A DNA stretch of 64,000 nucleotides from an uncultured delta proteobacterium (GCA_963737265.1 CAVTRY010000011.1:928001-992000); one strand, 5' to 3'. Counted from the first letter of the stretch, positions 1,426-64,000 are shown. Notes: generated by a model not told the origin, from the letters alone. A program made the numbers and translations.

Positions 1426-1440
1426 GTTTGTCGCAAGCTC

Positions 1441-5045: not shown

Positions 5046-5339
5046 ATGAAAACGAACCGCCAAAAGCACACAGCACTCTTCAAGGCGCAGGTAGCTCTCG
5101 AAGCCATGCGGGAGCAGGCAACGGTTGTGGAGATCGGGCGCCGATATAAGATCAACCCGAACCTGGTTCACAAGTGGAAGAAGGAAGCCGTCACACGGCT
5201 GGCCATGGTTTTCGAACCAGGCCATGCAAATGCAGAGGAATCGGCGAACGCCGAACGCGAATCGGAATTGCTGCGCAAGGTGGGGCAGCTGACGCTGGAG
5301 AATGATTTTTTAGCACGCGGGCTCGCGCGCATTCGCTGA
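5046..5339 (+). CDS. IS3 transposase OrfA (HTH)
   Basis: HTALFKAQVALEAM...LVHKWKK...LLRKVGQLTLENDFL. Confidence 0.9.
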   Translation: MKTNRQKHTALFKAQVALEAMREQATVVEIGRRYKINPNLVHKWKKEAVTRLAMVFEPGHANAEESANAERESELLRKVGQLTLENDFLARGLARIR

Positions 5340-5353
5340 CGGAGAAGCGCGCC

Positions 5354-6178: not shown

Positions 6179-6418
6179 AAGAGGCCGCCTAAATCGCCGC
6201 TGCATCATGCTGATGGCACGCTGCCCACAACTGCAACGCGTTCACCTGCTTCTGTGGGGCCGTGCGCGCATTGCATCCGTGGACAGCAGCCATCAGCATG
6301 CCTCCGCTCTCAACAATTTCCTTGCCGGCGAGGCTCACCCGGATCTACAAACAAACCCACGCGGACTCTCTCTTAGCTCGGGCCATTTCTGGTCCTACCA
6401 AAGGGGTCCACTTCAGAA

Positions 6419-7249: not shown

Positions 7250-7432
7250 CGGCCACTCGCGCTCAAAATCTGTTTGTCACCGTTCCGTTGGTTCTGCATT
7301 TCCAGCGGCGCAAACCTCTGGAATTCCAGCCATCTGGATAGCGTTTGTCAGATCGGCGCCCAAATCCTAATTTGTCAATTCAGGGGTCAAATCCAAAGAG
7401 CGCCGCCGACGGCAATCCTGTATTCGTGAATC

Positions 7433-8722: not shown

Positions 8723-9209
8723 ATCGAAGACCGCAGTTGAACCGCAAACACGAATCGCAAACGAAGAGGAGAAACACACCATGAGCACCCCGCAAAAACC
8801 AGACTGGATCCAAAACGCAGCCCGCGTTGATCGGCCCGAAATCGAACGATGGTACAAGCCCGAGAAGGAAGGCGCCCTGGACGGCGTGCTCATCTGGCGC
8901 GGCCAGGAAGAGCACCGCCAGTCCGGCGACGTCTACAACGTCTACGCCATCAGGCAGAACGAGACGAACGCCATCATTGGCGTCTCGGAGCGCTTTGGCC
9001 TGCGCGGTTTGCGCAGGGTCAAGCTGAACAGCAAGGTGTTCATCGAGCCCACCGGCGAGAAGGAGCTGGAGAGCGGGCGGAAGATGCAGCAGTTCCAGAT
9101 TCACGCGGAGCACCTCGAAGCGCTGCCCGAGCCAACACGCGCCAAACCGAAAGGGACTCAAAGCCCGACAGACGGAGCGACGGCCGGTTCCGAAGAAGTT
9201 CCCTTTTAG
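8712..9209 (+). CDS. Putative single-stranded DNA-binding protein (OB-fold-like; alternative start 8781)
   Basis: Beta-rich core, flexible linker and acidic C-terminal tail SEEVPF (compare SSB DDIPF). Lies directly after rep with a good RBS. Confidence 0.6.
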   Translation: MPNESKTAVEPQTRIANEEEKHTMSTPQKPDWIQNAARVDRPEIERWYKPEKEGALDGVLIWRGQEEHRQSGDVYNVYAIRQNETNAIIGVSERFGLRGLRRVKLNSKVFIEPTGEKELESGRKMQQFQIHAEHLEALPEPTRAKPKGTQSPTDGATAGSEEVPF

Positions 9210-9227
9210 CCATCTGGAGGTCGCCCC

Positions 9228-9452
9228 ATGTCCCTACAACTGCCAGACCGCCCCGTGCTCACCGTGAAGGAGGCTGCCGCGATCCTCGGCGTGAACGTGA
9301 AAACGCTTTACGCCGAGATCGAAGCCGGCGCCTTCCCGGCGCTCCGGGTCGGGAGAGTGATCCGAATCGCGACCAACGTGCTAGCCTCGTTCCTTCAGCA
9401 AGGCCGCGTCGCGCCGGTTGGAGGAATCCATGCCAGCAAGACGCGATCGTAG
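9228..9452 (+). CDS. Excisionase/HTH_17 DNA-binding protein
   Basis: LTVKEAAAILGVNVKTLYAEIEAGAFPALRVGRVIRI; RBS GGAGG; overlaps the integrase start. Confidence 0.88.
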   Translation: MSLQLPDRPVLTVKEAAAILGVNVKTLYAEIEAGAFPALRVGRVIRIATNVLASFLQQGRVAPVGGIHASKTRS

Positions 9453-10542
9453 TGGACGATGGCGATACAGAAAAACAGTCAGACTCCCCGACGGGAGCAA
9501 ACGCCGCATCGACGGAACGCCAACGTCGAACACGAAACTGGCGGCCGAGGCTGCGGAGCGAGACCACATCAACCGTGTGGTCTCGCCCCCGGCCGCTATC
9601 GAAGAGAAGAAGGAGGTGCCCACCTTTCAGAAGTTCGTGGACGTGGTTTGGTGGCCAACGTATCCAAGCTCGGTCAACAACCGGCCGAGCACCTGCCAAG
9701 AGAAAGAGATCCATCTTCGGATTCACCTCAAGCCCACGCTTGGCGCCCTGCCCTTGGACAAGATCCGCGGCGAGGTGGTCAACGTCCTGATGGCGAAGCT
9801 GAAGGTGGAATCGAAGCTCTGCCCAAAGTCGATCAAGAACATCATCGGGACGCTGAGGCGCGTGCTGGCCTCGGCAGTCGAGTGGGAGTATCTGGGGGCG
9901 ATGCCTCCCCTACCCCGCATCAAGGTGGCGCAGCCGGAGTGGGATTTCCTCACGCCGGAGGAATCCGCCAAGGTGCTGGAGGCAGCGCGGGCGCGCTCCG
10001 AGGAGGTCTACGCCTCGATTCTGTTCGCGCTGCACACAGGGGCGCGAGCGGGCGAGGAGATCGCTTTGGAATGGGGCGACGTGGACTACCACAGCCACAT
10101 GCTGGTCTTCCGCCGCAGCTCTACCAAGGGCTACGTCGGACCGACCAAGAGCGGGAAAGAACGGCGGGTGCCCCTCACGGCTTCACTGGAAGCCGCACTG
10201 AAGGCGATCCGTCACCTGCGGGGCAAGCGGGTCTTCTGCAAGGAAGACGGCTCTGCGCTGCTGATAGGGCAGCTTCACGAGCGACTGTGGGGCGCGTGTC
10301 GACGGGCGGGCCTTCGGGAGATCCGGTGGCACGACTTGCGACACACGTTCGCTTCGCAGCTAGCCTCCCAGGGCGTTCCCATTCCGCAGATCCAGCAGTG
10401 GATGGGACACTCCACCATCACCATGACCATGCGCTATGCCCACCTGGCTCCGGGCAGCGGAGCCGACCTGATCCGATCACTCGACGCCAATTCCGTGGCA
10501 AATCCGTGGCAAAAACACGCGTCCCCGGCCCTAAGTACCTAG
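9430..10542 (+). CDS. Tyrosine integrase
   Basis: HTGARAGE, TKSGK, HDLRHTFAS, MGHS and MRYAHL catalytic residues; ends 8 bp from the tRNA-Glu 3' end. Confidence 0.95.
   Translation: MPARRDRSGRWRYRKTVRLPDGSKRRIDGTPTSNTKLAAEAAERDHINRVVSPPAAIEEKKEVPTFQKFVDVVWWPTYPSSVNNRPSTCQEKEIHLRIHLKPTLGALPLDKIRGEVVNVLMAKLKVESKLCPKSIKNIIGTLRRVLASAVEWEYLGAMPPLPRIKVAQPEWDFLTPEESAKVLEAARARSEEVYASILFALHTGARAGEEIALEWGDVDYHSHMLVFRRSSTKGYVGPTKSGKERRVPLTASLEAALKAIRHLRGKRVFCKEDGSALLIGQLHERLWGACRRAGLREIRWHDLRHTFASQLASQGVPIPQIQQWMGHSTITMTMRYAHLAPGSGADLIRSLDANSVANPWQKHASPALST
10492..10513 (+). repeat. Perfect 11-bp tandem repeat TCCGTGGCAAA x2, probable integrase arm-type sites
   Basis: Seen directly at 10492-10502 and 10503-10513, between the catalytic Tyr codon and the tRNA. 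The function is inferred. Confidence 0.6.
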
Positions 10543-10891: not shown

Positions 10892-12175
10892 ATGGAGCTG
10901 AGCTTCTGGGCTGCAACGGACATTGGTCGCAAGCGCGTCCACAACGAGGATAACTTCCTCGTCGACCAAAAACTGTCTCTGTTCGTCGTGGCGGACGGCA
11001 TGGGCGGGCACGCCTCGGGCGAGGTTGCATCGCAGATCGCGGTCACCGAATTCCGCGGCGCGGTGGACAGCCGGCGCGACATCTTGGAAGCCTACGCGCG
11101 TCACGAAACCGGGGTCACGACGCACGACGTGCTCGGCGCGCTGGAGTATGCGGTGCAGACGGCCGGCTTGGCGATTTTCGAACGCGGCCAGAAGGAACCC
11201 GAGAAGCGCGGCATGGGCACCACCCTGTCCGCCTTGCTGCTCATCGGCGAGCGCGGCTTCATCGCCCATGTGGGCGACAGCCGCGTCTACATGGTTCGTT
11301 CCGGCCAGACCGTGCAGCTTACCGAGGATCACTCCCTCATCAACGAGCTCATCCGCCACGGCAAGGTCACGCGCGAGACGCTGGCGAAGTCGCCGTACGC
11401 CTCATACAAGAATGCGGTCACGCGCGCGCTCGGCGTCTACGAAACCGTGCAGGTCGATACCATCGACTTGGAAGTCATCCCGGGCGACCAGTTTCTGCTG
11501 TGCTCTGATGGGCTGCACAGCTATCTCGACGAGAAGGAAATTTCCCGCCAGCTGGCCGAGGAAAGTATCACGGCCATCCCAGGCAAGCTGGTCGAGCTGG
11601 CCAACAAGGGCGGCGGGCACGACAACATCACCGCCGTCGTCCTGCGCGTGCATGCGGACGCCACCGCGGGCGCGAATGCGCGCACCCAAGAGCTCAACCG
11701 CAAGGTCGAGGTCTTAAAGCAGATGCCGCTCTTCCGGCACCTCACCTACAAGGAGATTCTGCGCGTTCTGTCGCTGACCGAGGTGACGGACTACAAACCT
11801 GGCGACGAAATCATCACCGAAGACGAGCCCGGCAGCGAGCTCTTCATCATCTTGTCCGGCAAGGTGCGCCTGCACAAAGAGGGCGCGCTGGTGACCTACC
11901 TTGGCCAGGGCGCGCACCTTGGCGAGATGGCCTTGGTCGACAACGGCCCGCGCTCGGTGAGCGCAACCACCGAGGAGCCGTCGCGCGTGCTGGTCTTGCG
12001 TCGGCGCGACTTCAACGACCTCATTCGCAACTACCCGCGCATGTCGGTCAAGCTGCTGTGGAGCTTCGTCCAGGTGCTCGGACAACGCCTACGCAAAACC
12101 AACGCCGACCTCGCAGGCGCCCGCAACGAAGCCGCCACGGCCGACCTGTCCGACCAGGTGCTGTTCGACGAATAA
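10892..12175 (+). CDS. PP2C-family (Stp1/PrpC) Ser/Thr phosphatase fused to a C-terminal cNMP-binding domain
   Basis: NEDNF, VADGMGGH, HVGDSRVY, CSDGL and GGHDNIT; then LFIILSGKV...GEMALVDNGPRSVSA. Confidence 0.92.
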   Translation: MELSFWAATDIGRKRVHNEDNFLVDQKLSLFVVADGMGGHASGEVASQIAVTEFRGAVDSRRDILEAYARHETGVTTHDVLGALEYAVQTAGLAIFERGQKEPEKRGMGTTLSALLLIGERGFIAHVGDSRVYMVRSGQTVQLTEDHSLINELIRHGKVTRETLAKSPYASYKNAVTRALGVYETVQVDTIDLEVIPGDQFLLCSDGLHSYLDEKEISRQLAEESITAIPGKLVELANKGGGHDNITAVVLRVHADATAGANARTQELNRKVEVLKQMPLFRHLTYKEILRVLSLTEVTDYKPGDEIITEDEPGSELFIILSGKVRLHKEGALVTYLGQGAHLGEMALVDNGPRSVSATTEEPSRVLVLRRRDFNDLIRNYPRMSVKLLWSFVQVLGQRLRKTNADLAGARNEAATADLSDQVLFDE

Positions 12176-12196
12176 GATCGAGACCCCGATCTACTA

Positions 12197-13450
12197 CTAC
12201 TGATACAGGAACACCACCTCGACGCGGTGGTTGCTGGCGCGGCCGGCTGCGGTGCGACCGTCGGCAATGGGCTCGGAACCGCCCTGCCCGCTCGCCATCA
12301 TGCGCTTGACGTCCACACCGCGGGTGACCAGGGCGTTGAAGACCGACTGTGCCCGCGCCGCAGACAGGGCCAGGAGAGAGGTTACGCCGCCGCGGCTGTC
12401 GGTGTGCCCGATGACCTGTACCGGGAACGACTCGTAGTCCTTCTTCTTGATGAGGGCCGCGATGGGGTCGAGCACGGCGTCCTTACCCGGCGCGATGACG
12501 GTCTGCTTTTTCACGAACAGCATGTCCGCAGGAATCGCCAGGATCACGCGCTGAAGCGAACCACGCACGTCGCGGCGGGCCTTGATGCCCGGTATGGCGC
12601 TCGCGTCGGCGAACAGTGCATCGGCCTTCTTGTGGTTTTCCGCCGCTTGCGAATCACGCTCGTAGCTGGGCTTGGCCGCCGCCGCGGCATCGCCAGCAGT
12701 CTTCTTGGCGATGGCGGCGCTGGTCTGCGCTTGCTGCATTTGACCGGTCTGCAGTTCAGTCTGAGCCCGGGCCAAGGTTTCGGCGGCCGACTTGTAGAGC
12801 TCGGGCGCGTACTTCGGCGCGTTCAGCGTCTCGGCCGTCTTCATGGCCAGCTCTGCTTCCGAAACCTTGTCGCTCGTCTCGGCCTTCAGCTTCTCCTGCG
12901 CCAGCTTCTCCTCGTTGGCCTTCTTGTCCGCGGCCATCTGCGCCTCGAGCGCCTTCATCTCTTCGTTCTTCTGGCCTTCCTCGACCTGGCGCAACGTCTG
13001 TTCGTGGCGGAGCTTGTTGAGCAGGGCAATTTTCTCGTTGGTATCGTCAAGCTCCTTCTGGACCTTTTCCTGCTCTTCCGCCGTGGCCGAAAGAGCGTCC
13101 TCGGCGTTCGCGATGCGCGCGTTGGACTTGTCCTGATCGGCCAGCGAAAGCGCGTGCCGGTAGAAGATTTGTCCCATCAAGGCGGCGTTGACCGACTCGT
13201 TCAGGTCGTTGCTCTGCCACTTGTTGGTTGCAACTTCGAAGGACTTGTCGCCCTTCTTGCACAGGTCGGGGGCACGCTTGCGCGCCGCCGGCATGTCCGG
13301 ATCGATGCGCAGTCTCTCAAGGGTGTCGAGCTCGCGCGGCTTGGGCGGTGTGGCGCATCCGATGGCGAGCAGCCCGGCGGCAACGAGGCAAAGACAGGAC
13401 GCACGAAACACGAAGCTCATGGTGGATCTCCCGACAACAGCAGTTTTCAT
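12197..13450 (-). CDS. OmpA/MotB-domain lipoprotein with coiled coil (DUF4398-like); start may be ~13420
   Basis: Lipobox LAIGC, long coiled coil, VIGHTDSRG...LSAARAQSV...NHRVEVV. Confidence 0.85.
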   Translation of the reverse strand: MKTAVVGRSTMSFVFRASCLCLVAAGLLAIGCATPPKPRELDTLERLRIDPDMPAARKRAPDLCKKGDKSFEVATNKWQSNDLNESVNAALMGQIFYRHALSLADQDKSNARIANAEDALSATAEEQEKVQKELDDTNEKIALLNKLRHEQTLRQVEEGQKNEEMKALEAQMAADKKANEEKLAQEKLKAETSDKVSEAELAMKTAETLNAPKYAPELYKSAAETLARAQTELQTGQMQQAQTSAAIAKKTAGDAAAAAKPSYERDSQAAENHKKADALFADASAIPGIKARRDVRGSLQRVILAIPADMLFVKKQTVIAPGKDAVLDPIAALIKKKDYESFPVQVIGHTDSRGGVTSLLALSAARAQSVFNALVTRGVDVKRMMASGQGGSEPIADGRTAAGRASNHRVEVVFLYQ

Positions 13451-13866
13451 ACCTTGCCCTCCAGACGCGCCTTTTGAATCTTGGCGTTCTCGAGAGCCTG
13501 CTTGGTGTGGGCCAACTGCGCTCGGGCTCGCTTGACCTCGTCTTCTTTGGCCGCGGCCTGCGCCGACAGCTTGGCCGCGGTCAGCTTCTGCCGAACCATG
13601 TTGGCTTGGGCTTCACAGCGATCGAGCGCGATGCGCACCTCGTCGTATTTTTCTTGAGATCGTAGCGTCCAAGCAGTGTCGAGCCATGACCGCATCATGG
13701 TGATTTCGGTGTTGACGGCCTTCTGGTCGTCCTGCCGCTCGAGATCGGTGGTGGTCTGCTTGAGATAGTCGATCTGCCGTTGCAAATCGTCGGCCTCGCC
13801 GGCACGTGCCAGAGCGGGCACGGTCAGGACGCCAAGAAACAGGAACATGGTCGCGTATCTGGTCAT
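13447..13866 (-). CDS. Secreted coiled-coil hypothetical protein, coupled to the OmpA gene
   Basis: RBS GGAG, signal peptide MTRYATMFLFLGVLTVPALARA, 4-bp overlap with the next ORF. Confidence 0.7.
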   Translation of the reverse strand: MTRYATMFLFLGVLTVPALARAGEADDLQRQIDYLKQTTTDLERQDDQKAVNTEITMMRSWLDTAWTLRSQEKYDEVRIALDRCEAQANMVRQKLTAAKLSAQAAAKEDEVKRARAQLAHTKQALENAKIQKARLEGKV

Positions 13867-14014
13867 GTTTTCCTCGCCTGGTTGCGATGCGGCCCTATGT
13901 TCGGGGTTCGGTGCTAGCTTCGTCAACCTGAAAACGCCTTCGCCCTGCAGTTCTGCGCAGGTTCTGGATTGCCCCCTTGACTCGGGCCCCAGGCCCACGG
14001 CCTTACCCATTGCC

Positions 14015-14503
14015 CTACCCTTCGCCCGCCAAAGCTAAGATGTGATCGCGAAGGTCCCAGGAAACGCGAAGCCGGAGCTCTAGGAGGCGATCCAGAATCG
14101 GGCGCACCGCTGGCACGTGGCCGAGCTGTTTGGCGACAAGAACCACGTTCAGGGTGCCGGTGATCTTCACGCCGAGTCGCGCGGCCACCCGGCGTCCGGG
14201 CAATTCGTCGATGATGGCCACCGCGCCAGGATTCGCCATCGCAAGGGTCAAGACCGCGCGTTCGCCTGCCCCGAGAAAGCCGAACGGTTCCAACTCGGGG
14301 GACAGAAGCGCGACTGGCCGCACGTCCGCCCAAGGCAGGTTAAGCGGCTCGGGAAGATCGTAACCGCGCGCACGTCCGGCGCTCAATTCGGCCACCACCT
14401 GGCCGGGAACGATGACGCGGCCGAGGACGGCGGGCAAGACTTGCAGAATGCCCGCGCGGTGCAGGTAGCACAGAGGCGACGTGTTGACGATGTGGTCAGC
14501 CAA
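14015..14503 (-). CDS. DUF3368 PIN-domain putative toxin
   Basis: IVNTSPL...LGAGERAVL...IIDELPGRRVA...GTLNVVLVAK. Confidence 0.88.
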   Translation of the reverse strand: MADHIVNTSPLCYLHRAGILQVLPAVLGRVIVPGQVVAELSAGRARGYDLPEPLNLPWADVRPVALLSPELEPFGFLGAGERAVLTLAMANPGAVAIIDELPGRRVAARLGVKITGTLNVVLVAKQLGHVPAVRPILDRLLELRLRVSWDLRDHILALAGEG

Positions 14504-49145: not shown

Positions 49146-49231
49146 CAGGACAAGGATCGGACTATGGGCGGGCGTTCACCGCGCGCGCCCATAGTTTCCG
49201 ATCCGCATTCTTCGCACCTAGGCAGCCTAAC

Positions 49232-50062
49232 ATGAGCAACATCGAAGATGACGTGCGGCAAGGGAAGCTGGAGGAAGCGCTGGCCAGCTTGCAAGCCGCG
49301 ATCCGCAAAGCCCCTGCCGATGCCAAATACCGCACCTTTCTTTTCCAGTTACTCTCCGTGATGGGCCAGTGGGAGCGGGCCATGACCCAGCTCAATGTGG
49401 TCGGCGATTTGGATGCCAAGGCGCTGCCCATGGTCCAAACCTACCGAGCGGCTTTGAAATGCGAAGAGCTTCGCGGCGAGGTCTTCGCCGGACGGCGAAC
49501 GCCGTTGTTTTTCGGCGAGCCGGCCGCGTGGGCGGCCCTGCTCCTGCAGTCGCTGTCGCTTGCGACGCAAGGTCGTGCCGACCAGTCCGACGCCCTCCGC
49601 GCCCAGGCGCTCGAACAAGCGCCAGCCTCGGCGGGGCGCATCGATGGCCAACCCTTCGCTTGGCTTGCCGACGCGGACGCCCGTCTCGGGCCCATCCTCG
49701 AAGCTATCGCGAACGGAAAATACTACTGGATCCCTTTCGCCAACCTCAGCGCCATTCGCATCGAGAAGCCGGTTGACCTGCGCGACTTGGCGTGGGTTCC
49801 CGCCTACCTCACCCTCAGCAACGGCGGCGAGCTCGTGTCCTTGATTCCCACCCGCTACCCTGGTTCGGAATCCAGCGCGGACACGGCCATCCGCATGGCA
49901 CGCAAGACCGACTGGATCGGGCACCAGGATGGCACCAGCTCGGGGCTAGGCCAGCGCATGTTCGCCACCGATCAGGGCGACTATCCCTTGCTCGAAGTCC
50001 GCTCCATCGAGTTCGACCCACCTCCCGAGCCAGTCGGCGAGACGGCTTTGGACAATGGCTGA
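49232..50062 (+). CDS. tagJ: ImpE/SciE (TagJ) accessory protein
   Basis: LFQLLSVMGQWERA, WLADADARLGP, DLRDLAW, IPTRYPGS, GLGQR. Confidence 0.9.
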   Translation: MSNIEDDVRQGKLEEALASLQAAIRKAPADAKYRTFLFQLLSVMGQWERAMTQLNVVGDLDAKALPMVQTYRAALKCEELRGEVFAGRRTPLFFGEPAAWAALLLQSLSLATQGRADQSDALRAQALEQAPASAGRIDGQPFAWLADADARLGPILEAIANGKYYWIPFANLSAIRIEKPVDLRDLAWVPAYLTLSNGGELVSLIPTRYPGSESSADTAIRMARKTDWIGHQDGTSSGLGQRMFATDQGDYPLLEVRSIEFDPPPEPVGETALDNG

Positions 50063-56439: not shown

Positions 56440-58573
56440 ATGGCACTGTTAGGACAAGACACGTTGGTTACCGGGCCCTTGGACAAGGGCGTGCTTCTTC
56501 TCGAGACATTCGCGGGTTATGAGGCGCTGGGGGAACCCTACAACTACGAGTTGACCCTTCTTTCCACCAACCCCGCCATCCCGGTGGGAGACGTGCTCGG
56601 CAAGCCTCTCACCGTCCACATCAAGCTCGACAGCGGCAAATATCGCTATTTCCACGGCATCGTCACCTATTTCGCCAAGGTCGGCCCGACCCACGGACAT
56701 ACCCGCTACGTCGCCGTCCTCAACCCACAACTTTCCCTGTTCGAGTACACGCGCGACTGCCGGATCATGGATGAAGAAGGCCAGACAGCCCTCAGCATCG
56801 TGACCGACGTGCTTGCCAAACGCGGGTTCACCGACGTCGACTCGGGTTCCATCAAGGACCACACCTATCGCCAACACGACTACTGCGTGCAATACTGCGA
56901 GAGCGATTCTCAACTTCGTGCACCGACTGCTCGAAGAGGAGGGCATCTATTACTTCTTCAAGCATGAAAACGGCCTGCACACGATGGTGCTTGCCGATTC
57001 CACCACCGCCCATGCCAAGGTACCCGGCTACGAAACCGTCCTCTGCCGCCCCATGCTCCACGCGCAAGCGCGCGATGAGGAGCACTTCTGGTCGCTCAGG
57101 GTAACCGGGGGACTTTACCCCGGCAAGCTCACCGTGGTGCGCGGATACGACTACACGCTCATCCGGCCATCCGCCGTCCAATTTGGCCAGCAGCCGTCGG
57201 GCGAGCCCCGGCCCGGCTCGGATTTCGAAGACTACGACTATCCAGGGGGACTTTCGCCAGAGGCGGAAGCCAACCAAGAAGCCCTGGTGCGCATGCAGAT
57301 GGACCGCGTCGCCAACACGGTGATCGAGGTCGAGGGCAACACCATGGGGCTAGGCGTGGGCGCCCTCGTCAGCCTCGCCAAGCCGTTGTCCATCGACGGC
57401 ATCGCCTTCAATCCCTTTTGGGGCGAAGACGGCTTCGCCAAGGAATACCTCATCACCTCCGCGCGCTACTCCATCAGCATCAACCAGTACGAATCCGGCG
57501 ACGTGGCGAAATCCGACCAGCCATTCAAGGCGAGCTACACCTTGCTCGACAGCCAGGTCCAGTTCCGCCCCCAGCGCGGGGCGAGCAAGCCCAGGATCGA
57601 AGGCCCCCAGACCGCCGTCGTGGTGGGGCCCGCCGACGAAGAAATCTGCACCGACACCGACAAGCTCGGCCGCGTGAAGGTGCAGTTCGACTGGGATCGC
57701 CTCGGCAAACACGACGAGAAATCCTCTTGCTGGGTCCGTGTGTCCCAAGCCTGGGCCGGGGCGAAATGGGGCGCCTTTCACCTTCCACGCATCGGCCACG
57801 AAGTCATCGTGGAATTCCTCGACGGCGATCCCGACCGCCCCATCGTCACCGGCCGGGTCTACAACGCCGACAACCTGCCGCCCTACGACTCGCCCACCCA
57901 AAGCGGCATCAAGAGCCGCAGCACCAAAGGCGGCACCCCCAGCAACTTCAACGAAATCCGCTTCGAGGATCTCAAAGGCAAGGAAGAGCTGCACATCCAG
58001 GCCGAAAAGGACATGTCGACGTTGGTGAAGAACAATGAATCGCTTTCCGTGGGCGGCGACCGCAGCGTCAGCGTCACCGGCAATCAGTCGGTGAGCATCT
58101 CTGGCAAGGGCTCTAGTCCCATTCATTCCACGACCAAGGTCACCGGCAAATACGATCTCGACGTCAGCGACACCATTCACATCAAGGCGCCGACGTCGAT
58201 CACGCTAGAATGTCCAGGCAGCAAGATCGAGATGCTGCCGGGGAAGATAACCATCACGTCGGGTGACGGATCGACGATCGTGCTGGACGCCAATGTTCTG
58301 ACCAAGGCAAGCGGAGGCGCGAATACGCTGCATGATGCTCATGTCCTATCGCAGTCGAACGATGGAGCAAAGGTGCTGCTCGACGCCAACGTTCGCGCCG
58401 AGTCGAGCGGCGGAAGCGCGTTACAACTGGACGGCAACGCTCTGGTTGACGGTAAAGGCACGGCTGACCTTCAGGGCGCATCATCGGCAGCCATCTCGGC
58501 GGGTGGCTCATCGGTCAAGACCAGCTCCGGCGGAATCGACGTGTCTGGCTCAATGGTAAATCACAACGTTTGA
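56440..58573 (+). CDS. vgrG: T6SS spike VgrG (apparent +1 frameshift ~56908)
   Basis: YCVQYCESD|LNFVHRLLEEEGIYY, GPQTAVVVGP, GRVKVQFDWDR, LPRIGHEVIVEFLDGDPDRP; C-terminal beta-repeats; no toxin extension. Confidence 0.95.
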
Positions 58574-59205
58574 GCACAGCGAATAAATCCCCCCTTGCGT
58601 CGGATGCCGGGCCTGAGTCGGTTGGGCTGGTAACCGTGGAGGCGTCCAGAATGAAACAGGACATGACGAACGCTGTCGCCATGGATGGCGAGTCCGCCCA
58701 AGCGGATCCGGCGAAGAGTGTCGCACCCGTTCCCATCGGCGACGGGTGGAGCGCTGAGCTTTCGCCCTTGCGCGGGGGCGCCATGCTGAGAGTTGGCCGG
58801 GATGCAACCGACCAGTCCATGGAAATAGCTATTTCCCTCACCAGCGATGGTCCCGTCCTGCGAGCACGGGCTGCATCCTTCGAGATCGAGGCCCAGAAGG
58901 ATCTCGTCGTGCGGTGCGAACGATTCCAGGTCGAGGCACGGGAATCCGTCGAAATAGTTTCGCGCGGAACGCTCCAGGCCCAGGGCCGCCGGGTCGAAAT
59001 CGAGGCAACCCATGGCTCGGCGCGGGTGTTGGCCAATGACGACGTGCAGCTGCTGGGAGAGAACGTCCTGCTCAATTGCGAGCACCCGCAACCCTCGTTG
59101 CCGGGCTGGGCTCTGCCACCACCCCTTGCCCCAGCTCCGACTCTCGCAGTCGAGCACGTGTCTGGGGACACCGACCTCGTTGCGGACTTGAAGGAGGGGC
59201 GATAG
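58570..59205 (+). CDS. Hypothetical protein with gp5/VgrG-tip-like beta-strand repeats
   Basis: Overlaps the vgrG stop; FEIEA..DLVVRC..FQVEA..SVEI..VEIEA...VQLLGENVLLN. Confidence 0.6.
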   Translation: MSTANKSPLASDAGPESVGLVTVEASRMKQDMTNAVAMDGESAQADPAKSVAPVPIGDGWSAELSPLRGGAMLRVGRDATDQSMEIAISLTSDGPVLRARAASFEIEAQKDLVVRCERFQVEARESVEIVSRGTLQAQGRRVEIEATHGSARVLANDDVQLLGENVLLNCEHPQPSLPGWALPPPLAPAPTLAVEHVSGDTDLVADLKEGR

Positions 59206-59209: not shown

Positions 59210-60169
59210 ATGCGTCTGACCAACCAAACAGGTGCGGCGGCCTATCTCTACAAGGTGAATCTTCTCGAGCCTGAGTTGCGAGTCGTCGCGATCGTCAAGA
59301 AGACCTATGCGCTCGCCCCGGACGGCCGCCTAGCCGCAGCCGACGAGCCGCTCCCACTCGTCGTCGACCAGCTTGTCACTGAGCACGGATGCTTTCACGG
59401 CGAGATCTTTTTTCGCAAACGTGGCATAGACCTTTGCGTGCTCGGCACTGCCCGCTTCGAGACACCCGTCCGGCATGCACGGGTGAGGATCGATGTTGGC
59501 CCGTGGAATCACGAGCTGAGGGTCCTCGGCGATCGGGTGTGGACCCGAGACCGCAGCGGCACCCTGGTGCCGACCGCGCCGGCACCGTTCCAAGAAATGC
59601 CGATAAGCTATGCCCGAGCCTTCGGCGGAGTGGCGCAGGTCAACGGAGAAGATGTGCCTTTGCCCGACAATCCCCTCGGGCGCGGATACTACGAAGCTGC
59701 GGAACACGCGATCGGCAAGCCTCTGCCCAACATCGAACCCGCGAACTGGTCAGCCGCGTGCAGCTGGAACACGCACATTCCCGTCGCTGGCTGGGCGCCC
59801 TACCCGATGTACTGGGGGCTGCGCGCTTCACGCGCGGTCAAGGTCGAGCCGAAGAGCGGCGAGATCCTCGACGTGTCCACGGAGATCTTCAACCACGCCC
59901 ATCCCGAGTTGATCCTCGATCGCCTGGAACCGGGCACGCCCGTACGAATCACCGGCCTCCGCAAGGCTTCCATCGTCCTCGCTGTTCCGCGCGAACGTCC
60001 TCGCGTCGAATGTCACGTGGGCGAGAAAGTCTCCGAAGCCTTTGGGGAGATCGACGGCTTGTTTCTTTGGACCGACGCAAACCGGGTCGTGGTCACCTGG
60101 CGGGCTCGTTTTCGCTACGCCTTCCGACGCGAAGAAATCCGACGCGCAACCCTTAGCTTCGTGCAGTGA
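59210..60169 (+). CDS. DUF2169-family T6SS adaptor
   Basis: VAIVKKTY, DLCVLGTA, VLGDRVW, PISYARAFGG, NPLGRGY, PNIE, FNHAHP. Confidence 0.88.
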   Translation: MRLTNQTGAAAYLYKVNLLEPELRVVAIVKKTYALAPDGRLAAADEPLPLVVDQLVTEHGCFHGEIFFRKRGIDLCVLGTARFETPVRHARVRIDVGPWNHELRVLGDRVWTRDRSGTLVPTAPAPFQEMPISYARAFGGVAQVNGEDVPLPDNPLGRGYYEAAEHAIGKPLPNIEPANWSAACSWNTHIPVAGWAPYPMYWGLRASRAVKVEPKSGEILDVSTEIFNHAHPELILDRLEPGTPVRITGLRKASIVLAVPRERPRVECHVGEKVSEAFGEIDGLFLWTDANRVVVTWRARFRYAFRREEIRRATLSFVQ

Positions 60170-60176
60170 GGATCCA

Positions 60177-61142
60177 ATGCCAGGTTTTCCAGTTCTAACC
60201 ACCCTTCAGCCAATCTTTGGCCTCGATGCTCACAAGTCGCTCCCGCCGCCTCCACCCGTGGGCCCCCTCATTCTCCCACACCCTGTCGTTTGGGTCTCTG
60301 GTCTCAGCCAGAAGACCGGCTTCATGTGGGCCATTGCTGCTACCAGCCGTGCCAGCTCGCCAGAGAGCGGTTGCCTCACGCCCACGCGCGTGGGCCCTGG
60401 CTATGCCTGCGGGCGAACGCACGACGCCGGCCCGCATCCAGGGCATATTTGGCCGAATGCGCTGCTTCCGCTCATTCTGCTCAGCTCAGCGAGCAAGGCC
60501 GAGTTTGGCTCGGGCACGGTAAAAACGGCCATCGCGCCACAGGCCGGTGGCTCGGCGGACATGTGCATCAATGTCGCTTTCGTTCTCAACACCAACCTCG
60601 ACTGCCAAGACTTTCCGTTTCCCCCCTTACCCTCAGGAATGTGCTTCACCACGAACTACACGGTCTATGCTGGCTTCACCTTCATCGATTTCCTGCGGGG
60701 AATAATGCAGATGTTCATGGATGCCGTGGTAACGTGGCTCGTGGGGTTGGGTTGTGCAGCGCTCTCCGTGGTGCTCAGCGGTGTGATTGGGAAGCTATTG
60801 GGCAGGGCCGCACTATCCGACATATTGGGAGGGTTTAAGGGAATCTTCAACCTGGGAGGTCAGAGCAATGCCGTCTCCAGGGCCGTCATCTCCGACTACG
60901 CCTTAAGCGGTCGGGCTTTCGTTGAAGGGTGGCGAGCCATTCCCGGAGCGCTTGCCTCTGCGTGGAAGCAAGCTCCAGTCGAGCAGATTGTGGGACCGGT
61001 TACCGGCCTCCTCGGAACCTTCGGCGCAGGGACACCCATTGGATATGCCCCAAAGGACGCGAAGGTTGGCGGATGGAATCCCGATCCCCATAGCACTGTC
61101 AATGCTTGGTACTCTAGTTGGATCGACAATTGGCACAAATAG
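60177..61142 (+). CDS. Putative T6SS effector: PAAR-like N-terminus plus hydrophobic Gly-rich C-terminal region
   Basis: Directly follows DUF2169; GLDAH..PPPPP...PHP, HDAGPH.GH, FGSGTV and CQD, then hydrophobic/amphipathic helices. The function is inferred. Confidence 0.6.
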   Translation: MPGFPVLTTLQPIFGLDAHKSLPPPPPVGPLILPHPVVWVSGLSQKTGFMWAIAATSRASSPESGCLTPTRVGPGYACGRTHDAGPHPGHIWPNALLPLILLSSASKAEFGSGTVKTAIAPQAGGSADMCINVAFVLNTNLDCQDFPFPPLPSGMCFTTNYTVYAGFTFIDFLRGIMQMFMDAVVTWLVGLGCAALSVVLSGVIGKLLGRAALSDILGGFKGIFNLGGQSNAVSRAVISDYALSGRAFVEGWRAIPGALASAWKQAPVEQIVGPVTGLLGTFGAGTPIGYAPKDAKVGGWNPDPHSTVNAWYSSWIDNWHK

Positions 61143-61153
61143 GACACGCCCTA

Positions 61154-61786
61154 ATGACCGCCCAGTCTTCACAATTGGAGGACATCGCGCGGACTCTCGG
61201 ATTCACCCTGGATGAGCTTGCGCTCAATCGTACCGGACAGATCTCAGCACGACAGTCTTGGGAGAACGTGCGCCTAGCGGCCTGGGGAATGGGGCTAATC
61301 GTGGCGGTTATTGTGGCGATTCTAGTTCTTGTCTTCATAATCAAGCCGACAGGAATCCTGCGGCTCGTCAACTGTCTCTTTCTGATTCCTGGATTTCTTG
61401 TTGTGTCGTATATTGGCTGCGTCTGGATACGCGGTGTCATCGAGCGGAGGGTTCTTGTTACCGAGGGCAGCCTGAGTTTCCATGGTGCGGGGCGAGGACC
61501 GCCAACTATGGTCATCGGGCAAGCCAGAGTCCCGGCTCCGCCGCACGCGAACGCCGTCCTGACGGAGAACACGCCATACCGGGTGTTCTATCTCGCCCAT
61601 TCGAGAATCTTCCTCAGCATAGAACCCTTCGCCCGGACGCATCAGCAGGTGGAAGGAATTCCCGATGAGCCCTTCCGCGCAGACAGCAGAGAACCTAACG
61701 AAGACGCCAACCCTGTCTGCCGTGGGCGTGGTGCGGGCCCTGACGGCAATAGCTGGCGCGTCGGCGTGGCCGGAAAGGAAGCCTGA
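61154..61786 (+). CDS. 2-TM membrane protein, paralog 1 (candidate immunity)
   Basis: LGFTLDELALNRTGQIS, two TMs, then TEGSL...YRVFYL...FLSIEP. Confidence 0.7.
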   Translation: MTAQSSQLEDIARTLGFTLDELALNRTGQISARQSWENVRLAAWGMGLIVAVIVAILVLVFIIKPTGILRLVNCLFLIPGFLVVSYIGCVWIRGVIERRVLVTEGSLSFHGAGRGPPTMVIGQARVPAPPHANAVLTENTPYRVFYLAHSRIFLSIEPFARTHQQVEGIPDEPFRADSREPNEDANPVCRGRGAGPDGNSWRVGVAGKEA

Positions 61787-61843
61787 ATTGTCAACCGCGG
61801 ATGCACCCAGGATGCCGGGCCTGCATTTGGGGCGCATGTCCCA

Positions 61844-62332
61844 ATGACTGCTCAGCCTTCACAATTGGAGCACATCGCTCGGGCCCTCGGATTCACCCTG
61901 GATGAGCTTGCGCTCAATCGCCTTGGGCAGATCTCAGCCCATCAAGGATGGGAAATAGTACGCCAGGCGCTGGCCTTCGCCGGGGGCGCCTTGATGGGAA
62001 TCGGCGCGATCCTCGTCGTTGTCTTCCTAGTGAAACCAGTCGGGCTCTGGCGTCTGTGCTACGTATTGCTGGTAGCTGGGGCTGTGCTGATGATTGTCAT
62101 CGGGTCGCAGTCGATCGTGGCGGCCTGGCAGCACAAGGTCGTCAGTGCAGAAGGGGCATTGGATGTGCAAGTGTTTGGCCGAGGTGGCCCCATCATGTTC
62201 GTCGGCCGCGCGCATATTCCAGCGCCCACGGGAGCCGCGAGTGTTCTGACGAAAGGCGAGAATTACCGCCTCCATTACATCCAAGGCTTGGATCAATTCC
62301 TCAGCATCGAGCCGGTATCCAAGGCACCCTGA
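61844..62332 (+). CDS. 2-TM membrane protein, paralog 2 (candidate immunity)
   Basis: LGFTLDELALNRLGQIS, two TMs, then AEGAL...YRLHYI...FLSIEP. Confidence 0.7.
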   Translation: MTAQPSQLEHIARALGFTLDELALNRLGQISAHQGWEIVRQALAFAGGALMGIGAILVVVFLVKPVGLWRLCYVLLVAGAVLMIVIGSQSIVAAWQHKVVSAEGALDVQVFGRGGPIMFVGRAHIPAPTGAASVLTKGENYRLHYIQGLDQFLSIEPVSKAP

Positions 62333-62348
62333 GGGCAGAGTATCTTCG

Positions 62349-62891
62349 ATGGCTTCCTCCACTCCAATCGTCGCAGCAGCGACCGTGTCCATGGAAGACT
62401 TCGCCAAACGTGTCGGATTCACGTTAGAGGATTTGGCGCTCAATCGCGTTGGCAAAGTCGCACCCCACCAACTTTCCGAAAGCTACACACAAGCGGCAGG
62501 CCTCGCGGGGGTCGTTCTGATCATGTTGGGTTTCGTTCTGGTCCTTTCCTTCTTTGGAAAGGTAGGCGTAAAAGGAATCATCTTGGTTGTGGTTTTCTCA
62601 GCCTTGGGCGTCGTGTTTGCCGTTCTGTCTTGGAAAACCATGGCTGGGGCATGGAAACGCAACGTAGCCAGCGCCGAAGGAAATCTCGTATTAACCCATT
62701 CACCTGGCTCGGCCAGGCAGATTGTGGTTATCGGGTCGTACAACTGGCACATCGACCCGGGAACGCCAGTCCCCGCCGTGCTTGTTCCAGGCGCGCGCTA
62801 TCGTGTGTTCTATCTGGCTGGCTCCGACATGTTTCTTAGCATCGAACCGGTCGCTGATGCTCCCACCCTAGATCAAGGAAAGTCGCAATGA
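62349..62891 (+). CDS. 2-TM membrane protein, paralog 3 (candidate immunity)
   Basis: VGFTLEDLALNRVGKVA, two TMs, then AEGNL...YRVFYL...FLSIEP. Confidence 0.7.
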   Translation: MASSTPIVAAATVSMEDFAKRVGFTLEDLALNRVGKVAPHQLSESYTQAAGLAGVVLIMLGFVLVLSFFGKVGVKGIILVVVFSALGVVFAVLSWKTMAGAWKRNVASAEGNLVLTHSPGSARQIVVIGSYNWHIDPGTPVPAVLVPGARYRVFYLAGSDMFLSIEPVADAPTLDQGKSQ

Positions 62892-64000
62892 CGCCAGCCG
62901 AACCCGTCAAGGTCGAGAAACCAGCATCCAAGCCAGCGGTCTCGGCGGTACGCGTCGGGGGCGACCCCGAGGGTAAGGGGTGGCGTCTAGGCGTCATCGG
63001 CAAACGCACTTGGCGAGTCGTGCGAGGGCGTTGCGAATTGGCACCCGAGCAGGTTCCTCTCGTCGAAGAGCCGCTCTACGACGAACAGCGCGCGGTCCTC
63101 ATCCACGATGCAGACGTCTTGCTCAACCGCAGAAAGACAGACGTCGTCGTCCAAGGCCATGTCTATCCCACGGGCGGCCGGACGCCATTCGACTTTGGCG
63201 TTCAGGTCGGCAACTTGGTTCGTCTAGCCCGTGCCTTTGGCCCACGCAGCGTGGCGCCGAATCCAGCGACTGGCCGGCCGCGCTTTTCCGCGCCAGCTTC
63301 CATAGAAAAGATCTCCCTCACTTGGGAGAGTGCCTATGGCGGCGTCGACCTCGCCATGCGCGCCGAGGTAGGTGATCCATTCGAAGGCCCAATAAGGGAG
63401 GCTGGCGGTGAACCGGATCCCCGGTTCGGACTCTATGCCTATCCCCGCAATCCGGTCGGCCGCGGTTACGTCATCGAGCCGAGCAAGGCGGCGTTCGAAG
63501 CCTGCGAGTTGCCATTGCTTGAAGACCCCGAGTCGTTCCTCACGTCTGACAACTTGGTCCGAGGAGATTTCGTCCGCTGGCCCCAAGGCCCGGCCGTGGC
63601 CGGTTTCGGCTGGCTCTCCTACGCGTTCTTCCCCCGCAGCGCACTGCTAGGCGTTAAGCCCTTGGTGTACGACGGCGAAAACATCCCCCCATCGGGTTTT
63701 CGAGAGGTCAAGCGCGGTGACATGCATGATGCCGCCGTCCGCTCTGAGCGACCGATGACCGAGCGATTGGGAATCAAGGTGGCGCAAGCCTCAGCTATCG
63801 GCATGCGCACGGATTCCGTAGCCCCAGGCGATGTTGTCGCCTTGCACGGGCTGCACCCCCGCGAATTGCGCTGGACCTTCCGACTCCCTGCTGAAACGCC
63901 ACGCATGCACGTCCGTTTCAACGGCGAAAAGCCAATCGCCCTGCCTCCCCCGCTCATCCGGACCGTCCTTCTCGAACCCGACGAAGAGCGCCTGACGTTG
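62888..64000 (+). CDS. Second DUF2169-family protein (runs off the window end)
   Basis: ATG overlaps the previous stop. Manual translation gives GVIGKRTW, KTDVVVQGHVY, LTWESAYGG, YPRNPVGRGY, LPLLEDP. It is absent from the ORF track because there is no stop in the window. Confidence 0.85.
   Translation, partial: MTPAEPVKVEKPASKPAVSAVRVGGDPEGKGWRLGVIGKRTWRVVRGRCELAPEQVPLVEEPLYDEQRAVLIHDADVLLNRRKTDVVVQGHVYPTGGRTPFDFGVQVGNLVRLARAFGPRSVAPNPATGRPRFSAPASIEKISLTWESAYGGVDLAMRAEVGDPFEGPIREAGGEPDPRFGLYAYPRNPVGRGYVIEPSKAAFEACELPLLEDPESFLTSDNLVRGDFVRWPQGPAVAGFGWLSYAFFPRSALLGVKPLVYDGENIPPSGFREVKRGDMHDAAVRSERPMTERLGIKVAQASAIGMRTDSVAPGDVVALHGLHPRELRWTFRLPAETPRMHVRFNGEKPIALPPPLIRTVLLEPDEERLTL

Follow-up and report, generated by a model that had tools for sequence, protein, structure and literature searches.

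The 64,000-nucleotide stretch of DNA analysed here (hereafter the window; uncultured delta proteobacterium, GCA_963737265.1 CAVTRY010000011.1:928001-992000) carries a gene module that is a new variant of the DUF2169/Tvp spike-tip system. We favour, with modest confidence, a reading that makes its central 321-residue product, X, a specialised T6SS spike-tip effector from a family still lacking annotation, for which we propose VgrG capping, a Tvp-like pre-complex, membrane attack and immunity conferred by paralogous membrane proteins. Four lines of evidence bear on this reading, namely conserved gene order, the size of the X family, a predicted contact with VgrG, and the co-variation of the X C-terminus with its companion genes.

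A conserved module in which two DUF2169 genes flank X

The gene order given by the initial annotation stands: vgrG, a 211-residue spike-like ORF, a DUF2169 gene (DUF2169a), the gene of X, three paralogs, and a second DUF2169 gene (DUF2169b) follow one another on the + strand (Table 1), and the module comes after this vgrG and the further T6SS genes of the window, annotated by profile as TssA-B-C, Hcp, TssE-F-G and ClpV. Intergenic distances in the module range from -4 to +57 nt and are thus tight, as expected of one operon. The span originally delimited, 59210..62891, is too short, as the conserved module consists of the spike-like ORF, DUF2169a, X and DUF2169b, and the three paralogs are a clade-specific insertion within it.

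Table 1. Features of the X module and the adjoining vgrG, in window coordinates.
Feature	Position	Strand	Basis or remark
vgrG (spike trimer), two frames: 56440-56967 and 56813-58573	56440-58573	+	Phage_GPD, Gp5_trimer_C, Phage_base_V, TIGR03361 (E 7.9e-115)
Spike-like ORF, 211 aa, candidate TvpC-like VgrG mimic	58570-59205	+	Weak beta-helix family matches
DUF2169a (TvpA-type chaperone), 319 aa	59210-60169	+	PF09937, E 2.6e-50
X, 321 aa	60177-61142	+	ATG start within a longer TTG ORF beginning at 60042
X residues 1-168, conserved beta-rich N-terminal domain, predicted VgrG cap	60177-60680	+	17 invariant columns (58 homologs), AF2 and complex models
X residues 169-321, long hydrophobic helix (169-207) then clade-variable helices, putative membrane-acting toxin part	60681-61142	+	AF2 model, hydrophobicity, identity
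Paralog 1, 210 aa, 2-TM candidate immunity protein	61154-61786	+	Family HMM, E 4e-72
Paralog 2, 162 aa, 2-TM candidate immunity protein	61844-62332	+	Family HMM, E 8.7e-85
Paralog 3, 180 aa, 2-TM candidate immunity protein	62349-62891	+	Family HMM, E 5.4e-64
DUF2169b, second and distinct DUF2169 paralog	62888-64000, cut by window end	+	PF09937, E 1.7e-37

For comparison we used 18 related loci, fetched through X and drawn from Myxococcota, Planctomycetota and Bacteroidota, all of which keep the order DUF2169a, X, DUF2169b. In every locus a DUF2169a ortholog (31-67 % identical) lies directly before X and a DUF2169b ortholog (29-76 % identical) after it, X abutting DUF2169b with no intervening gene in 13 of the 18, while the two DUF2169 proteins share only about 25-30 % identity with each other. 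The spike-like ORF is likewise present throughout, directly upstream of DUF2169a in 17 loci and downstream of the module in the remaining one (L012). Several modules can occur per genome, with three in one MAG (L009, L011, L015) and two in another (L003, L005), and vgrG does not adjoin at least seven of the modules; such multiplicity and separation from vgrG form the pattern of interchangeable effector modules. In L018, the module is found inside a core T6SSiii cluster, in the order Hcp, VgrG, module, TssE, TssF, TssG, TssN.

The window's vgrG changes frame near positions 56908-56912, where the sequence was read at the break, and the Phage_GPD profile is divided accordingly between its two ORFs (profile positions 2-128 on the first, 128-302 on the second); the vgrG homologs of L007, L010, L016 and L017 are encoded in a single frame. 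The start of the spike-like ORF that follows is uncertain, with a TTG codon overlapping the vgrG stop and an N-terminal segment of ~50 residues that is not conserved. Its homologs share the motif ANDDVQLxGExVLLNC, and both its location behind vgrG and its beta-helix-like repeats agree with TvpC, although the profile matches are weak (DUF3540, E 0.0036, below the curated cut-off; DUF2345, E 0.023), as are the hhalign comparisons with a DUF3540 protein (E 0.0035, probability 9 %) and a DUF6484 protein (E 0.0086, probability 5 %).

The N-terminal domain of X and the VgrG trimer end

X is part of a large family without a name, comprising 521 clusters at 50 % identity, and has no match in Pfam, NCBIfam, PDB sequences or Foldseek. 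The motifs quoted in the initial annotation (GLDAH, PPPPP, PHP, HDAGPHPGH, FGSGTV and CQD) are all found in the translation and are not due to chance: D17, H19, P23, P24, H35, H82, D83, G85, H90, K107, F110, V115 and C143 do not vary across 58 homologs. The full-length AF2 model (pLDDT 82.5, pTM 0.81) places strands up to residue 157; folded alone, the N-terminal domain is modelled with low confidence (pLDDT 66).

When X was modelled with three copies of the VgrG C-terminus, much as the initial annotation had proposed, its N-terminal domain was placed at the blunt end of the trimer with a score of 0.74 in three runs versus 0.01 for the best of three controls, at least 94 % of contacts agreeing between runs with a partner pLDDT of at least 65; in a calibration made on pairs of single chains, 58 of the 80 solved complexes and 2 of the 110 mismatched pairs attained the mark applied, and passing it may stem from a resemblance to VgrG-PAAR complexes already solved. 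In the model, each of three X segments (residues 68-74, 112-118 and 160-166) contacts residues 578-586 (the last 8-9) of a different VgrG copy, and the three contact strands carry conserved residues (P69, S112, G113, V115, V163, A165 and G166). This predicted arrangement, with three pseudo-symmetric strands each on one VgrG C-terminus, is how PAAR proteins bind.

By profile, X is neither a canonical PAAR protein (PF05488), with no match in X or 115 family members, nor a member of DUF4150/PIPY (PF13665), with none in X, 58 close and 57 distant members by the same search that recovers true PF13665 proteins in L016 (E 5e-43) and L006 (E 1.4e-39). An hhalign comparison of the X family with seven DUF4150 proteins gave a probability of 0.33 %, and a deeper X profile aligned to DUF4150 over 101 collinear columns only loosely and without significance (E 0.0088, probability 4.6 %). 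In this loose, nonsignificant alignment, P34-H35 of X fall on the P-Y of the PIPY motif and D17/H19 on the D and C of PDVC; the motif itself, P(I/V)P(Y/F), which lies near the cone vertex in DUF4150, is absent from X. At E <= 0.001, Foldseek returned nothing from the PDB with full-length and N-terminal domain models, nor from BFVD with one model, and small irregular beta folds are hard for Foldseek. The term PAAR-like, as originally applied to X, thus rests on predicted binding and gene context: it holds insofar as X follows DUF2169 in 18/18 loci and is modelled on the VgrG end, but not in the sense of a PAAR or DUF4150 match by sequence or Foldseek. In PAAR proteins a His/Cys cluster forms a structural internal zinc site, and the invariant H19, H35, H82, H90 and C143 of X could be a site of this type.

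No PAAR/DUF4150 gene was found among the window's annotated ORFs or, by the DUF4150 HMM, among its stop-to-stop ORFs; across the 18 loci and the window, 3021 ORFs in all, the HMM had only 2 matches. Two of the 18 loci (L006 and L016) have a true PF13665 PAAR-like gene adjoining vgrG as well as the X module, so that X is not simply a PF13665 replacement; given these loci, X may serve as one tip among alternatives or may not be a tip.

The variable C-terminal part and the companion membrane proteins

The C-terminal half of X, aptly characterised from the start as Gly-rich and hydrophobic, contains 14.4 % Gly and one strongly hydrophobic stretch (residues 175-214, Kyte-Doolittle peak 2.11). The AF2 model resolves it into helices 169-207, 212-224, 231-242, 245-265, 267-284 and 308-317, with the only clearly hydrophobic segment lying within the first, 39-residue helix and the others being amphipathic. 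A conserved N-terminal domain joined to variable C-termini, as anticipated in the initial annotation, is what the comparison of loci with different companion families revealed: X identity is 42.6 % in the N-terminal domain, 30.7 % in the helix and 12.1 % from residue 211 to the end. The last ~110 residues are hypervariable and nearly unalignable between clades, and for many of the 521 family representatives the match is limited to positions 1 to about 200 of the profile. X probably carries a membrane-targeting toxin.

The three paralogs have 40 invariant columns in common, including GFTL..LALNR.G and FLSIEP, and paralogs 2 and 3 are 49 % and 34 % identical to paralog 1; at the DNA level they share a 135-nt repeat that is 79 % identical, and a block of 59 nt is common to all three copies. 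The family-conserved part of paralog 1 ends near residue 165, its tail being missing in an 86 %-identical 168-aa homolog (P0235), and the family tree places paralog 3 in a different subclade (100* support). Neither Pfam nor NCBIfam has a match, in agreement with the earlier statement that the family cannot be assigned to a named domain. ESM Atlas look-alikes of paralog 2 belong to unnamed clusters and are commonest in Chloroflexota (score 0.95), which are not known for T6SS.

As for the description of three 2-TM proteins, their paralogy is clear and paralog 1 has two hydrophobic stretches on the Kyte-Doolittle scale, whereas paralogs 2 and 3 each have one long stretch of 57-59 residues, which we read as two TM segments joined by a conserved KPxGxxR loop. 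Across the family the inter-TM loop spans 6-8 residues and carries a charge of +2 or +3 in 20/20 sequences, with an acidic residue in just one; by the positive-inside rule, so short and positive a loop suggests that both tails of the paralogs face the periplasm.

The family HMM locates this family in 7 of the 18 loci in addition to the window. Other X clades carry other companion families: DUF3592-like TM proteins in a second clade (4 loci) and, in a third (2 loci), proteins of ~190 aa for which two or three TM segments are predicted. Within the flanks of L016, L017 and L018, no TM companion was found. Mapped on the X tree, the companion label changes 5 times (minimum 4) as opposed to a shuffled mean of 10.1, with 0/200 shuffles as low, in a test that does not separate co-evolution from shared descent, related loci sharing labels by descent. 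L003 and the window's lineage have each gained companion copies in independent expansions. The X C-terminus varies together with the companion membrane-protein family, which fits an effector-immunity pair, and the three paralogs are likely immunity proteins.

Proposed mechanism, alternatives and known spike-tip systems

We propose that the N-terminal ~165 residues of X would cap the VgrG trimer at its blunt end in the manner of PAAR and PIPY (DUF4150) domains. Prior to loading, X would probably be held in a Tvp-like pre-complex, where the 211-residue spike-like protein would take the place of VgrG and the DUF2169 pair would cover the hydrophobic surfaces of X. Upon firing, X would be delivered into a neighbouring cell, and its helix 169-207 together with the clade-variable helices could enter the inner membrane, or perturb it, from the periplasmic side, while the three 2-TM paralogs would bind the C-terminal part of X and protect the producer and its kin. 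More tentatively, and as an idea we find credible though short of probable, X would found a spike-tip branch, widespread in Myxococcota, Planctomycetota and Bacteroidota, that is missed by profile and fold searches, and the module would represent a fourth type of Tvp system, with a VgrG mimic and two different DUF2169 chaperones clamping a tip that bears a membrane-inserting toxin.

The constancy of the module would also suit a non-toxic structural tip or penetration cap belonging to the apparatus of this T6SS lineage, with nearby small membrane proteins that are not immunity factors: X lies between two DUF2169 genes in all 18 loci and three phyla, abuts DUF2169b in 13 of them, is part of a core T6SSiii cluster in L018, lacks a TM companion in the flanks of L016-L018, and has no PAAR/DUF4150 gene beside it among the window's annotated or HMM-scanned ORFs. 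We nevertheless consider this unlikely, as single genomes hold two or three modules, many of them apart from vgrG, the C-terminal ~110 residues are 12.1 % identical between clades while the N-terminal domain is kept, and the companions both track the X clade by family and have been tandemly expanded, independently. Less probable again is that X is a spike-riding cargo or adaptor, merely solubilised by the DUF2169 pair and the spike-like protein, with a PF13665 or PAAR protein encoded elsewhere as the true tip. The PF13665 genes that adjoin vgrG beside the X module in L016 and L006, and the failure of sequence and fold searches to place X in PAAR or DUF4150, would be in keeping with such a role, but the complex model positions X precisely at the end of the trimer, each of three strands touching one VgrG C-terminus (0.74 vs 0.01), DUF4150 matches are confined to two of the 3021 ORFs, and every module has its own VgrG-like stand-in, the published Tvp counterpart of which holds a PAAR-type protein (accessible text of PMC13373197).

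Finally, the toxic activity could reside in the N-terminal domain as a metal-dependent periplasmic enzyme built on the invariant Asp/His cluster and inhibited by the periplasm-facing domains of membrane-anchored paralogs. We judge this highly improbable: the invariance of D17, H19, H35, H82, D83, H90 and C143 in 58 homologs and the periplasmic paralog tails predicted from the positive loops of 20 sequences are compatible with it, yet Pfam, NCBIfam, PDB sequence and Foldseek searches yield no enzyme family, the residues contacting VgrG in the complex model sit in this very domain, and the domain is conserved while the companions change, the C-terminus co-varying instead. His/Cys clusters also make up the structural metal site of PAAR proteins. 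Of the interpretation first advanced, the non-canonical PAAR-like tip (by predicted binding and context), the unassignable companion family and the co-varying C-terminus are retained; PAAR/DUF4150 sequence membership and the borders of the unit are not.

DUF2169 proteins chaperone PAAR-like tips, and DUF4150/PIPY effectors with a DUF2169 chaperone include Tse7, PefE and VP1415 (accessible text of PMC11883445). Like these effectors, X is encoded directly after DUF2169 and downstream of vgrG, couples an N-terminal tip domain to a variable C-terminal part, and is predicted to occupy the end of the VgrG trimer; its length also matches that of the DUF4150 effectors fetched (328-349 aa). Unlike them, the X family has no PF13665 match in 115 members and no significant hhalign similarity, Pro-His occupies the position of the PIPY motif (loose alignment), the N-terminal domain is ~165 rather than ~108-130 residues long, and the gene has a DUF2169 paralog on either side rather than a single one ahead of it.

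Tvp systems share with the X module a core of VgrG, TvpA (DUF2169) and a tip protein and, in classes II and III, a short VgrG-like protein encoded after vgrG, TvpC, which mimics VgrG in the pre-complex; three classes, I-III, are defined, all around DUF4150 or PAAR proteins, and the X-module layout is not among them as described in the accessible text of PMC13373197. The X tip is neither PAAR nor DUF4150 by profile, the spike-like ORF, unlike TvpC, matches DUF3540 and DUF6484 only weakly, and a second DUF2169 paralog occupies the place after the tip gene. Neither TvpB (pentapeptide-repeat) nor TvpD (thiolase-like) was found in the window's module, where the window ends within DUF2169b, or in the scanned downstream ORFs of related loci.

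A membrane-depolarising precedent in T6SS is the VgrG1-associated activity with Vai1 (PMC13373197). X resembles membrane-depolarising effectors in that its hydrophobic, Gly-rich helical region adjoins genes for small, predicted inner-membrane proteins, and differs from them in lacking a sequence relation in Pfam/PDB searches and in the fusion of the putative toxin to a tip domain. Tse4, Ssp6, VasX and Tme are effectors of this kind with inner-membrane immunity proteins. The chaperones of prePAAR effectors are of the DUF1795/Eag family, whereas the chaperone-type neighbours of X are DUF2169 proteins. PrePAAR effectors carry TM domains and use Eag chaperones, and X is similarly a tip-type protein with hydrophobic helices and a presumed need for dedicated chaperones before secretion, its helices following the tip domain where those of prePAAR effectors precede the canonical PAAR domain (10.1101/2020.10.28.356139, accessible text).

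The module would extend the DUF2169/Tvp scheme to a paired-DUF2169 layout and to a tip family invisible to current domain models, so that automated annotation may make such T6SS loci, which lie outside the well-studied Proteobacteria, seem to lack a tip or an effector. The X variants and their matched companion membrane proteins would make a compact natural set for the solubility, loading and neutralisation of tip-fused membrane toxins, and, if the reading of X as a toxin-bearing tip is true, the very point of the spike would be the weapon.

Gene order of the secretion locus and its relatives

The type VI secretion (T6SS) cluster at the right end of the window lies on the + strand, and the gene order, coordinates and residue motifs described for it in the initial annotation are all correct. 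Its distal part comprises a 211-aa spike-like ORF, a first DUF2169 gene (DUF2169a), a 321-aa ORF (X), three small membrane-protein paralogs and a second DUF2169 gene (DUF2169b), with spacers of −4 to +57 nt between neighboring module genes.

Coordinates of features in the window and in related loci (L numbers)
Locus	Feature	Position	Strand	Remark
Window	DDE transposase	2-997		left end
Window	Weak Rep_1-like ORF	7433-8722		left end
Window	Phage-type integrase	9418-10542		left end
Window	TagH-like FHA protein	44165	+	
Window	TssA	45430	+	
Window	TssB	46522	+	
Window	TssC	47097	+	
Window	Hcp	48660	+	
Window	TssE-sized ORF	about 50055	+	by size
Window	TssF	50468	+	name from translation alone
Window	TssG	between TssF and ClpV	+	name from translation alone
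Window	ClpV	between TssG and VgrG	+	name from translation alone
Window	VgrG	56440-58573	+	two reading frames
Window	211-aa spike-like ORF	58570-59205	+	
Window	DUF2169a	59210-60169	+	
Window	X, 321 aa	60177-61142	+	
Window	Paralog 1	61154-61786	+	
Window	Paralog 2	61844-62332	+	
Window	Paralog 3	62349-62891	+	
Window	DUF2169b	62888 to window end	+	gene cut off by window end
L005	DUF3592-like companion	4921-5379		
L007	DUF3592-like companion	5027-5485		
L008	DUF3592-like companion	4921-5415		
L011	DUF3592-like companion	5908-6396		
L016	PF13665 neighborhood	136-597 and 608-2641	-	PF13665 gene after long DUF2169-containing ORF, divergent from vgrG
L006	PF13665 neighborhood	13807-14451 and 11449-13731	-	PF13665 gene upstream of convergent vgrG

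The window's vgrG is split into two overlapping frames that break near 56908-56912. The Phage_GPD profile continues unbroken over the frame change (positions 2-128, then 128-302), and the vgrG homologs of L007, L010, L016 and L017 are single-frame; the split reflects either a fault in the assembly or a true pseudogene and, if real, would leave the local spike gene inactive. Between Hcp and the TssE-sized ORF, some 0.9 kb (49150-50050) contain no assigned ORF, only overlapping candidates of 84-191 aa and a long alternative-frame ORF. The transposase at the left end, far from the T6SS cluster, is of the ISAZ013 type (E 9e-136). G+C content is 0.55-0.58 over the X C-terminus and the paralogs (60500-63000) versus 0.62-0.66 in the flanking T6SS genes, which fits exchanged or inserted DNA.

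One scan of species-representative genomes yielded 18 related loci, found in Myxococcota or unclassified relatives (15), Planctomycetota (2) and a Chitinophagaceae MAG. As GC3-based and longest-ORF gene callers made wrong calls in the GC-rich loci, gene limits were taken from tblastn and HMM matches and from frame-specific stops. With the window proteins as tblastn queries, the order DUF2169a, X, DUF2169b is found in 18/18 loci. Every locus also has the spike-like ORF, which immediately precedes DUF2169a in 17 and follows the module in L012. The X stop lies at most 86 nt from DUF2169b in 13/18, so that no gene fits between them, and small genes occupy this gap in 5/18 and in the window. The conserved unit is thus wider than the segment originally delimited, and in the window it has received the three paralogs as a lineage-specific insertion. 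The two DUF2169 proteins share about 25-30 % identity with one another, as opposed to 29-76 % with their respective orthologs, and are distinct, old paralogs.

A vgrG gene stands directly upstream in 6/18 loci and in the window, and the upstream genes are unrelated in at least seven modules (L003, L004, L005, L009, L011, L012 and L015). Three modules occur in one MAG and two in another, and the Chitinophagaceae copy is embedded in a T6SSiii core in the order TssC, Hcp, VgrG, module, TssE, TssF, TssG, TssN. In L010, a MAG contig, frame changes split each of DUF2169a, X and two paralog copies into pieces (6045-9000). DUF2169b is followed in L018 (Bacteroidota) by a soluble protein of 168 aa that contains an HExxH motif and matches DUF922 weakly (9240-9746), and in L016 (Planctomycetota) by a soluble 183-aa protein of no family (8858-9409); both could be cargo linked to DUF2169b.

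X as a candidate spike tip

X could be placed in no known family and is yet no orphan. Neither X nor the paralogs have a significant Pfam or NCBIfam match, the X family profile gave 0 matches at E ≤ 10 against PDB sequences, the ESM Atlas returned no usable match for X, and tblastn found no relative in 72,556 plasmids. A word-indexed search nevertheless recovered 81 X homologs, all unnamed or 'hypothetical', and exhaustive HMMER over 1.84 billion representatives extended the family to 521 clusters at E ≤ 0.001 (287 at E ≤ 1e-10); a scan of 57 more distant representatives found a real Pfam match in none. The His/Pro/Cys motifs singled out in the initial annotation turn out to be the invariant core of this family, with D17, H19, P23, P24, H35, G42, H82, D83, G85, H90, N94, K107, F110, V115, C143 and P152 unchanged over 58 homologs.

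An AlphaFold2 model built from the 58-sequence alignment presents X as a single confident unit (pLDDT 82.5, pTM 0.81), β-rich from residue 1 to about 160 and continuing into a 39-residue helix (169-207) and five more helices; the protein has a single strongly hydrophobic segment. Modelled alone, the N-domain (residues 1-168) reaches a pLDDT of 66 versus 82.5 for the whole protein, and the two halves probably pack against each other. Foldseek searches returned nothing at E ≤ 0.001, either with the full-length model against PDB and BFVD or with the N-domain model against PDB.

Modelling of X on the VgrG trimer, a check proposed at the outset for its N-terminal part, gave a positive outcome. With three copies of the last 120 VgrG residues and full-length X as input, the complex scored 0.74, 0.75 and 0.74 over three runs, as opposed to 0.01 for the best of 3 controls, and passed a mark that is met by 58/80 solved complexes and 2/110 mismatched pairs and was calibrated on single-chain pairs; by the tool's own warning, such a pass may stem from likeness to solved complexes. 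At least 94 % of contacts recur between the runs, the partner pLDDT is at least 65, and the predicted interface is three-fold, with X residues 68-74, 112-118 and 160-166 each meeting residues 578-586 of a separate VgrG copy. The X strands that contact VgrG carry the conserved residues P69, S112, G113, V115, V163, A165 and G166. As modelled, the contact is PAAR's way of capping VgrG.

Sequence comparison does not make X a member of these families. Neither PF13665 nor PF05488 matches X or any of 115 relatives, with a tool that detects the true PF13665 proteins of L016 (E 5e-43) and L006 (E 1.4e-39), and hhalign of the X family against seven proteins annotated as DUF4150 / PAAR-like and encoded in plasmid T6SS loci gave a probability of 0.33 %. 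A loose, non-significant hhalign of a 199-sequence N-domain profile against 9 DUF4150 domains (E 0.0088, probability 4.6 %, 101 collinear columns) places D17/H19 of X opposite the D and C of 'PDVC', its proline run opposite 'TPPxxP', and P34-H35 opposite the P-Y of PIPY, a hint of possible distant homology that we treat as a lead, not evidence. The original proposal of a PAAR-like tip is thus supported by the predicted binding to the VgrG end and by the tip gene position, but not by sequence membership. L016 and L006 each contain a true PF13665 gene beside vgrG in addition to the X module, and a DUF4150 HMM run over 3021 ORFs, which cover the whole window and the 18 loci, found no further match. 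This co-occurrence counts against a simple replacement of PAAR by X and indicates that one neighborhood can have room for two kinds of tip gene.

Variable C-termini and membrane companions

The C-terminal part of X is less conserved than its N-domain, a pattern that the initial annotation proposed to look for. Between modules with different companion families, as we call the small membrane proteins near X, identity is 42.6 % over the N-domain, 30.7 % over the helix (169-210) and 12.1 % from residue 211 to the end, versus 68.8 %, 50.4 % and 40.0 % within the same family. Genes of the window's paralog type, which the initial annotation proposed to seek beside such proteins, occur in 7/18 loci (L001, L002, L003 with three copies, L004, L006, L009 and L010) as well as in the window, placed in the X-DUF2169b gap, after DUF2169b or upstream, but the other loci have a different transmembrane (TM) companion or none. 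DUF3592-like proteins arranged as TM, β-domain, TM accompany a second X clade, itself well supported (L005, L007, L008 and L011); kinship of these proteins with the paralog family was considered and rejected (hhalign probability 0.5 %). In L013 (3820-4407) and L014 (7213-7791), DUF2169b is followed by a shared protein of ~190 aa that lacks a Pfam match and for which two or three TM segments are predicted; it is a candidate for another companion family. Other TM proteins occur in L012 and L015, and none was found in L016-L018.

Mapped on an X tree of 18 proteins, from which L010 was omitted because its genes are frameshifted, the companion label changes 5 times (minimum 4, shuffled mean 10.1), and 0/200 shuffles were as low. 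Shared descent alone could explain this agreement. As indirect evidence, the combined X/companion pattern is in keeping with a polymorphic-toxin logic.

Paralogs 2 and 3 are 49 % and 34 % identical to paralog 1, and the three genes have DNA-level repeats in common. As first surmised, no named domain can be assigned to the family, whose 14 clusters in the protein collection are all unnamed. The three L003 copies form a clade of their own (99*) and those of the window are spread over different subclades, which means that the arrays expanded more than once. In Kyte-Doolittle profiles, paralog 1 has two hydrophobic stretches and paralogs 2 and 3 have a single long one each; we read every paralog as having two putative transmembrane segments. 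The 6-8-residue loop between them carries a +2 or +3 charge in 20/20 sequences and an acidic residue in 1/20, which by the positive-inside rule would place the loop in the cytoplasm and both tails in the periplasm, an arrangement that would suit a toxin arriving from outside. Look-alikes of paralog 2 in the Atlas fall into unnamed clusters that are commonest in Chloroflexota (score 0.95), so the fold may not be specific to T6SS. Paralog 1 extends ~45 residues beyond its FLSIEP end (61649-61786), a tail missing from the 86 %-identical 168-aa homolog P0235, and in this copy the stop codon may be lost or displaced.

A possible chaperone-assisted tip and its alternatives

DUF2169 proteins are described in PMC11883445 as chaperones of DUF4150 'PIPY' tips, and in Tvp classes II and III, according to PMC13373197, the short VgrG mimic TvpC holds the tip until VgrG takes over. 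Compared with Tvp systems, X here stands in the tip position and the 211-aa ORF in that of TvpC. A thiolase-like TvpD, also suggested by position, was rejected as an identity for X, which lacks such a Pfam match and differs in predicted structure.

On balance, we lean toward X being a tip-type effector, in which a very divergent PAAR-like cap would be fused to a membrane-acting C-terminus. X would be loaded via a Tvp-like route involving the spike-like protein and the two DUF2169 chaperones, and the three paralogs would act as immunity proteins against it. Given the C-terminal divergence between companion groups, we consider it unlikely that X is a non-toxic structural tip. That X is cargo or an adaptor rather than a tip would agree with the missing PF13665 and PF05488 matches and sits poorly with the modelled three-fold contact, and we regard it as rather improbable. 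The invariant histidines, aspartates and cysteine might suggest a metal-dependent enzyme in the N-domain, a very improbable reading for a domain that also contains the residues predicted to contact VgrG.

If X is indeed a tip-type effector, its general principle, an effector fused to a spike tip that DUF2169/Tvp proteins assist, is already known. Two DUF2169 genes flanking a non-DUF4150 tip found no description in the accessible parts of the DUF2169 and T6SS literature compared, which includes the 2026 review PMC13584744 and PMC7714669, the supplements of PMC11883445 and PMC13373197 aside. New relative to this literature are the family of tips to which X belongs, the layout with paired chaperones and the family of companions.
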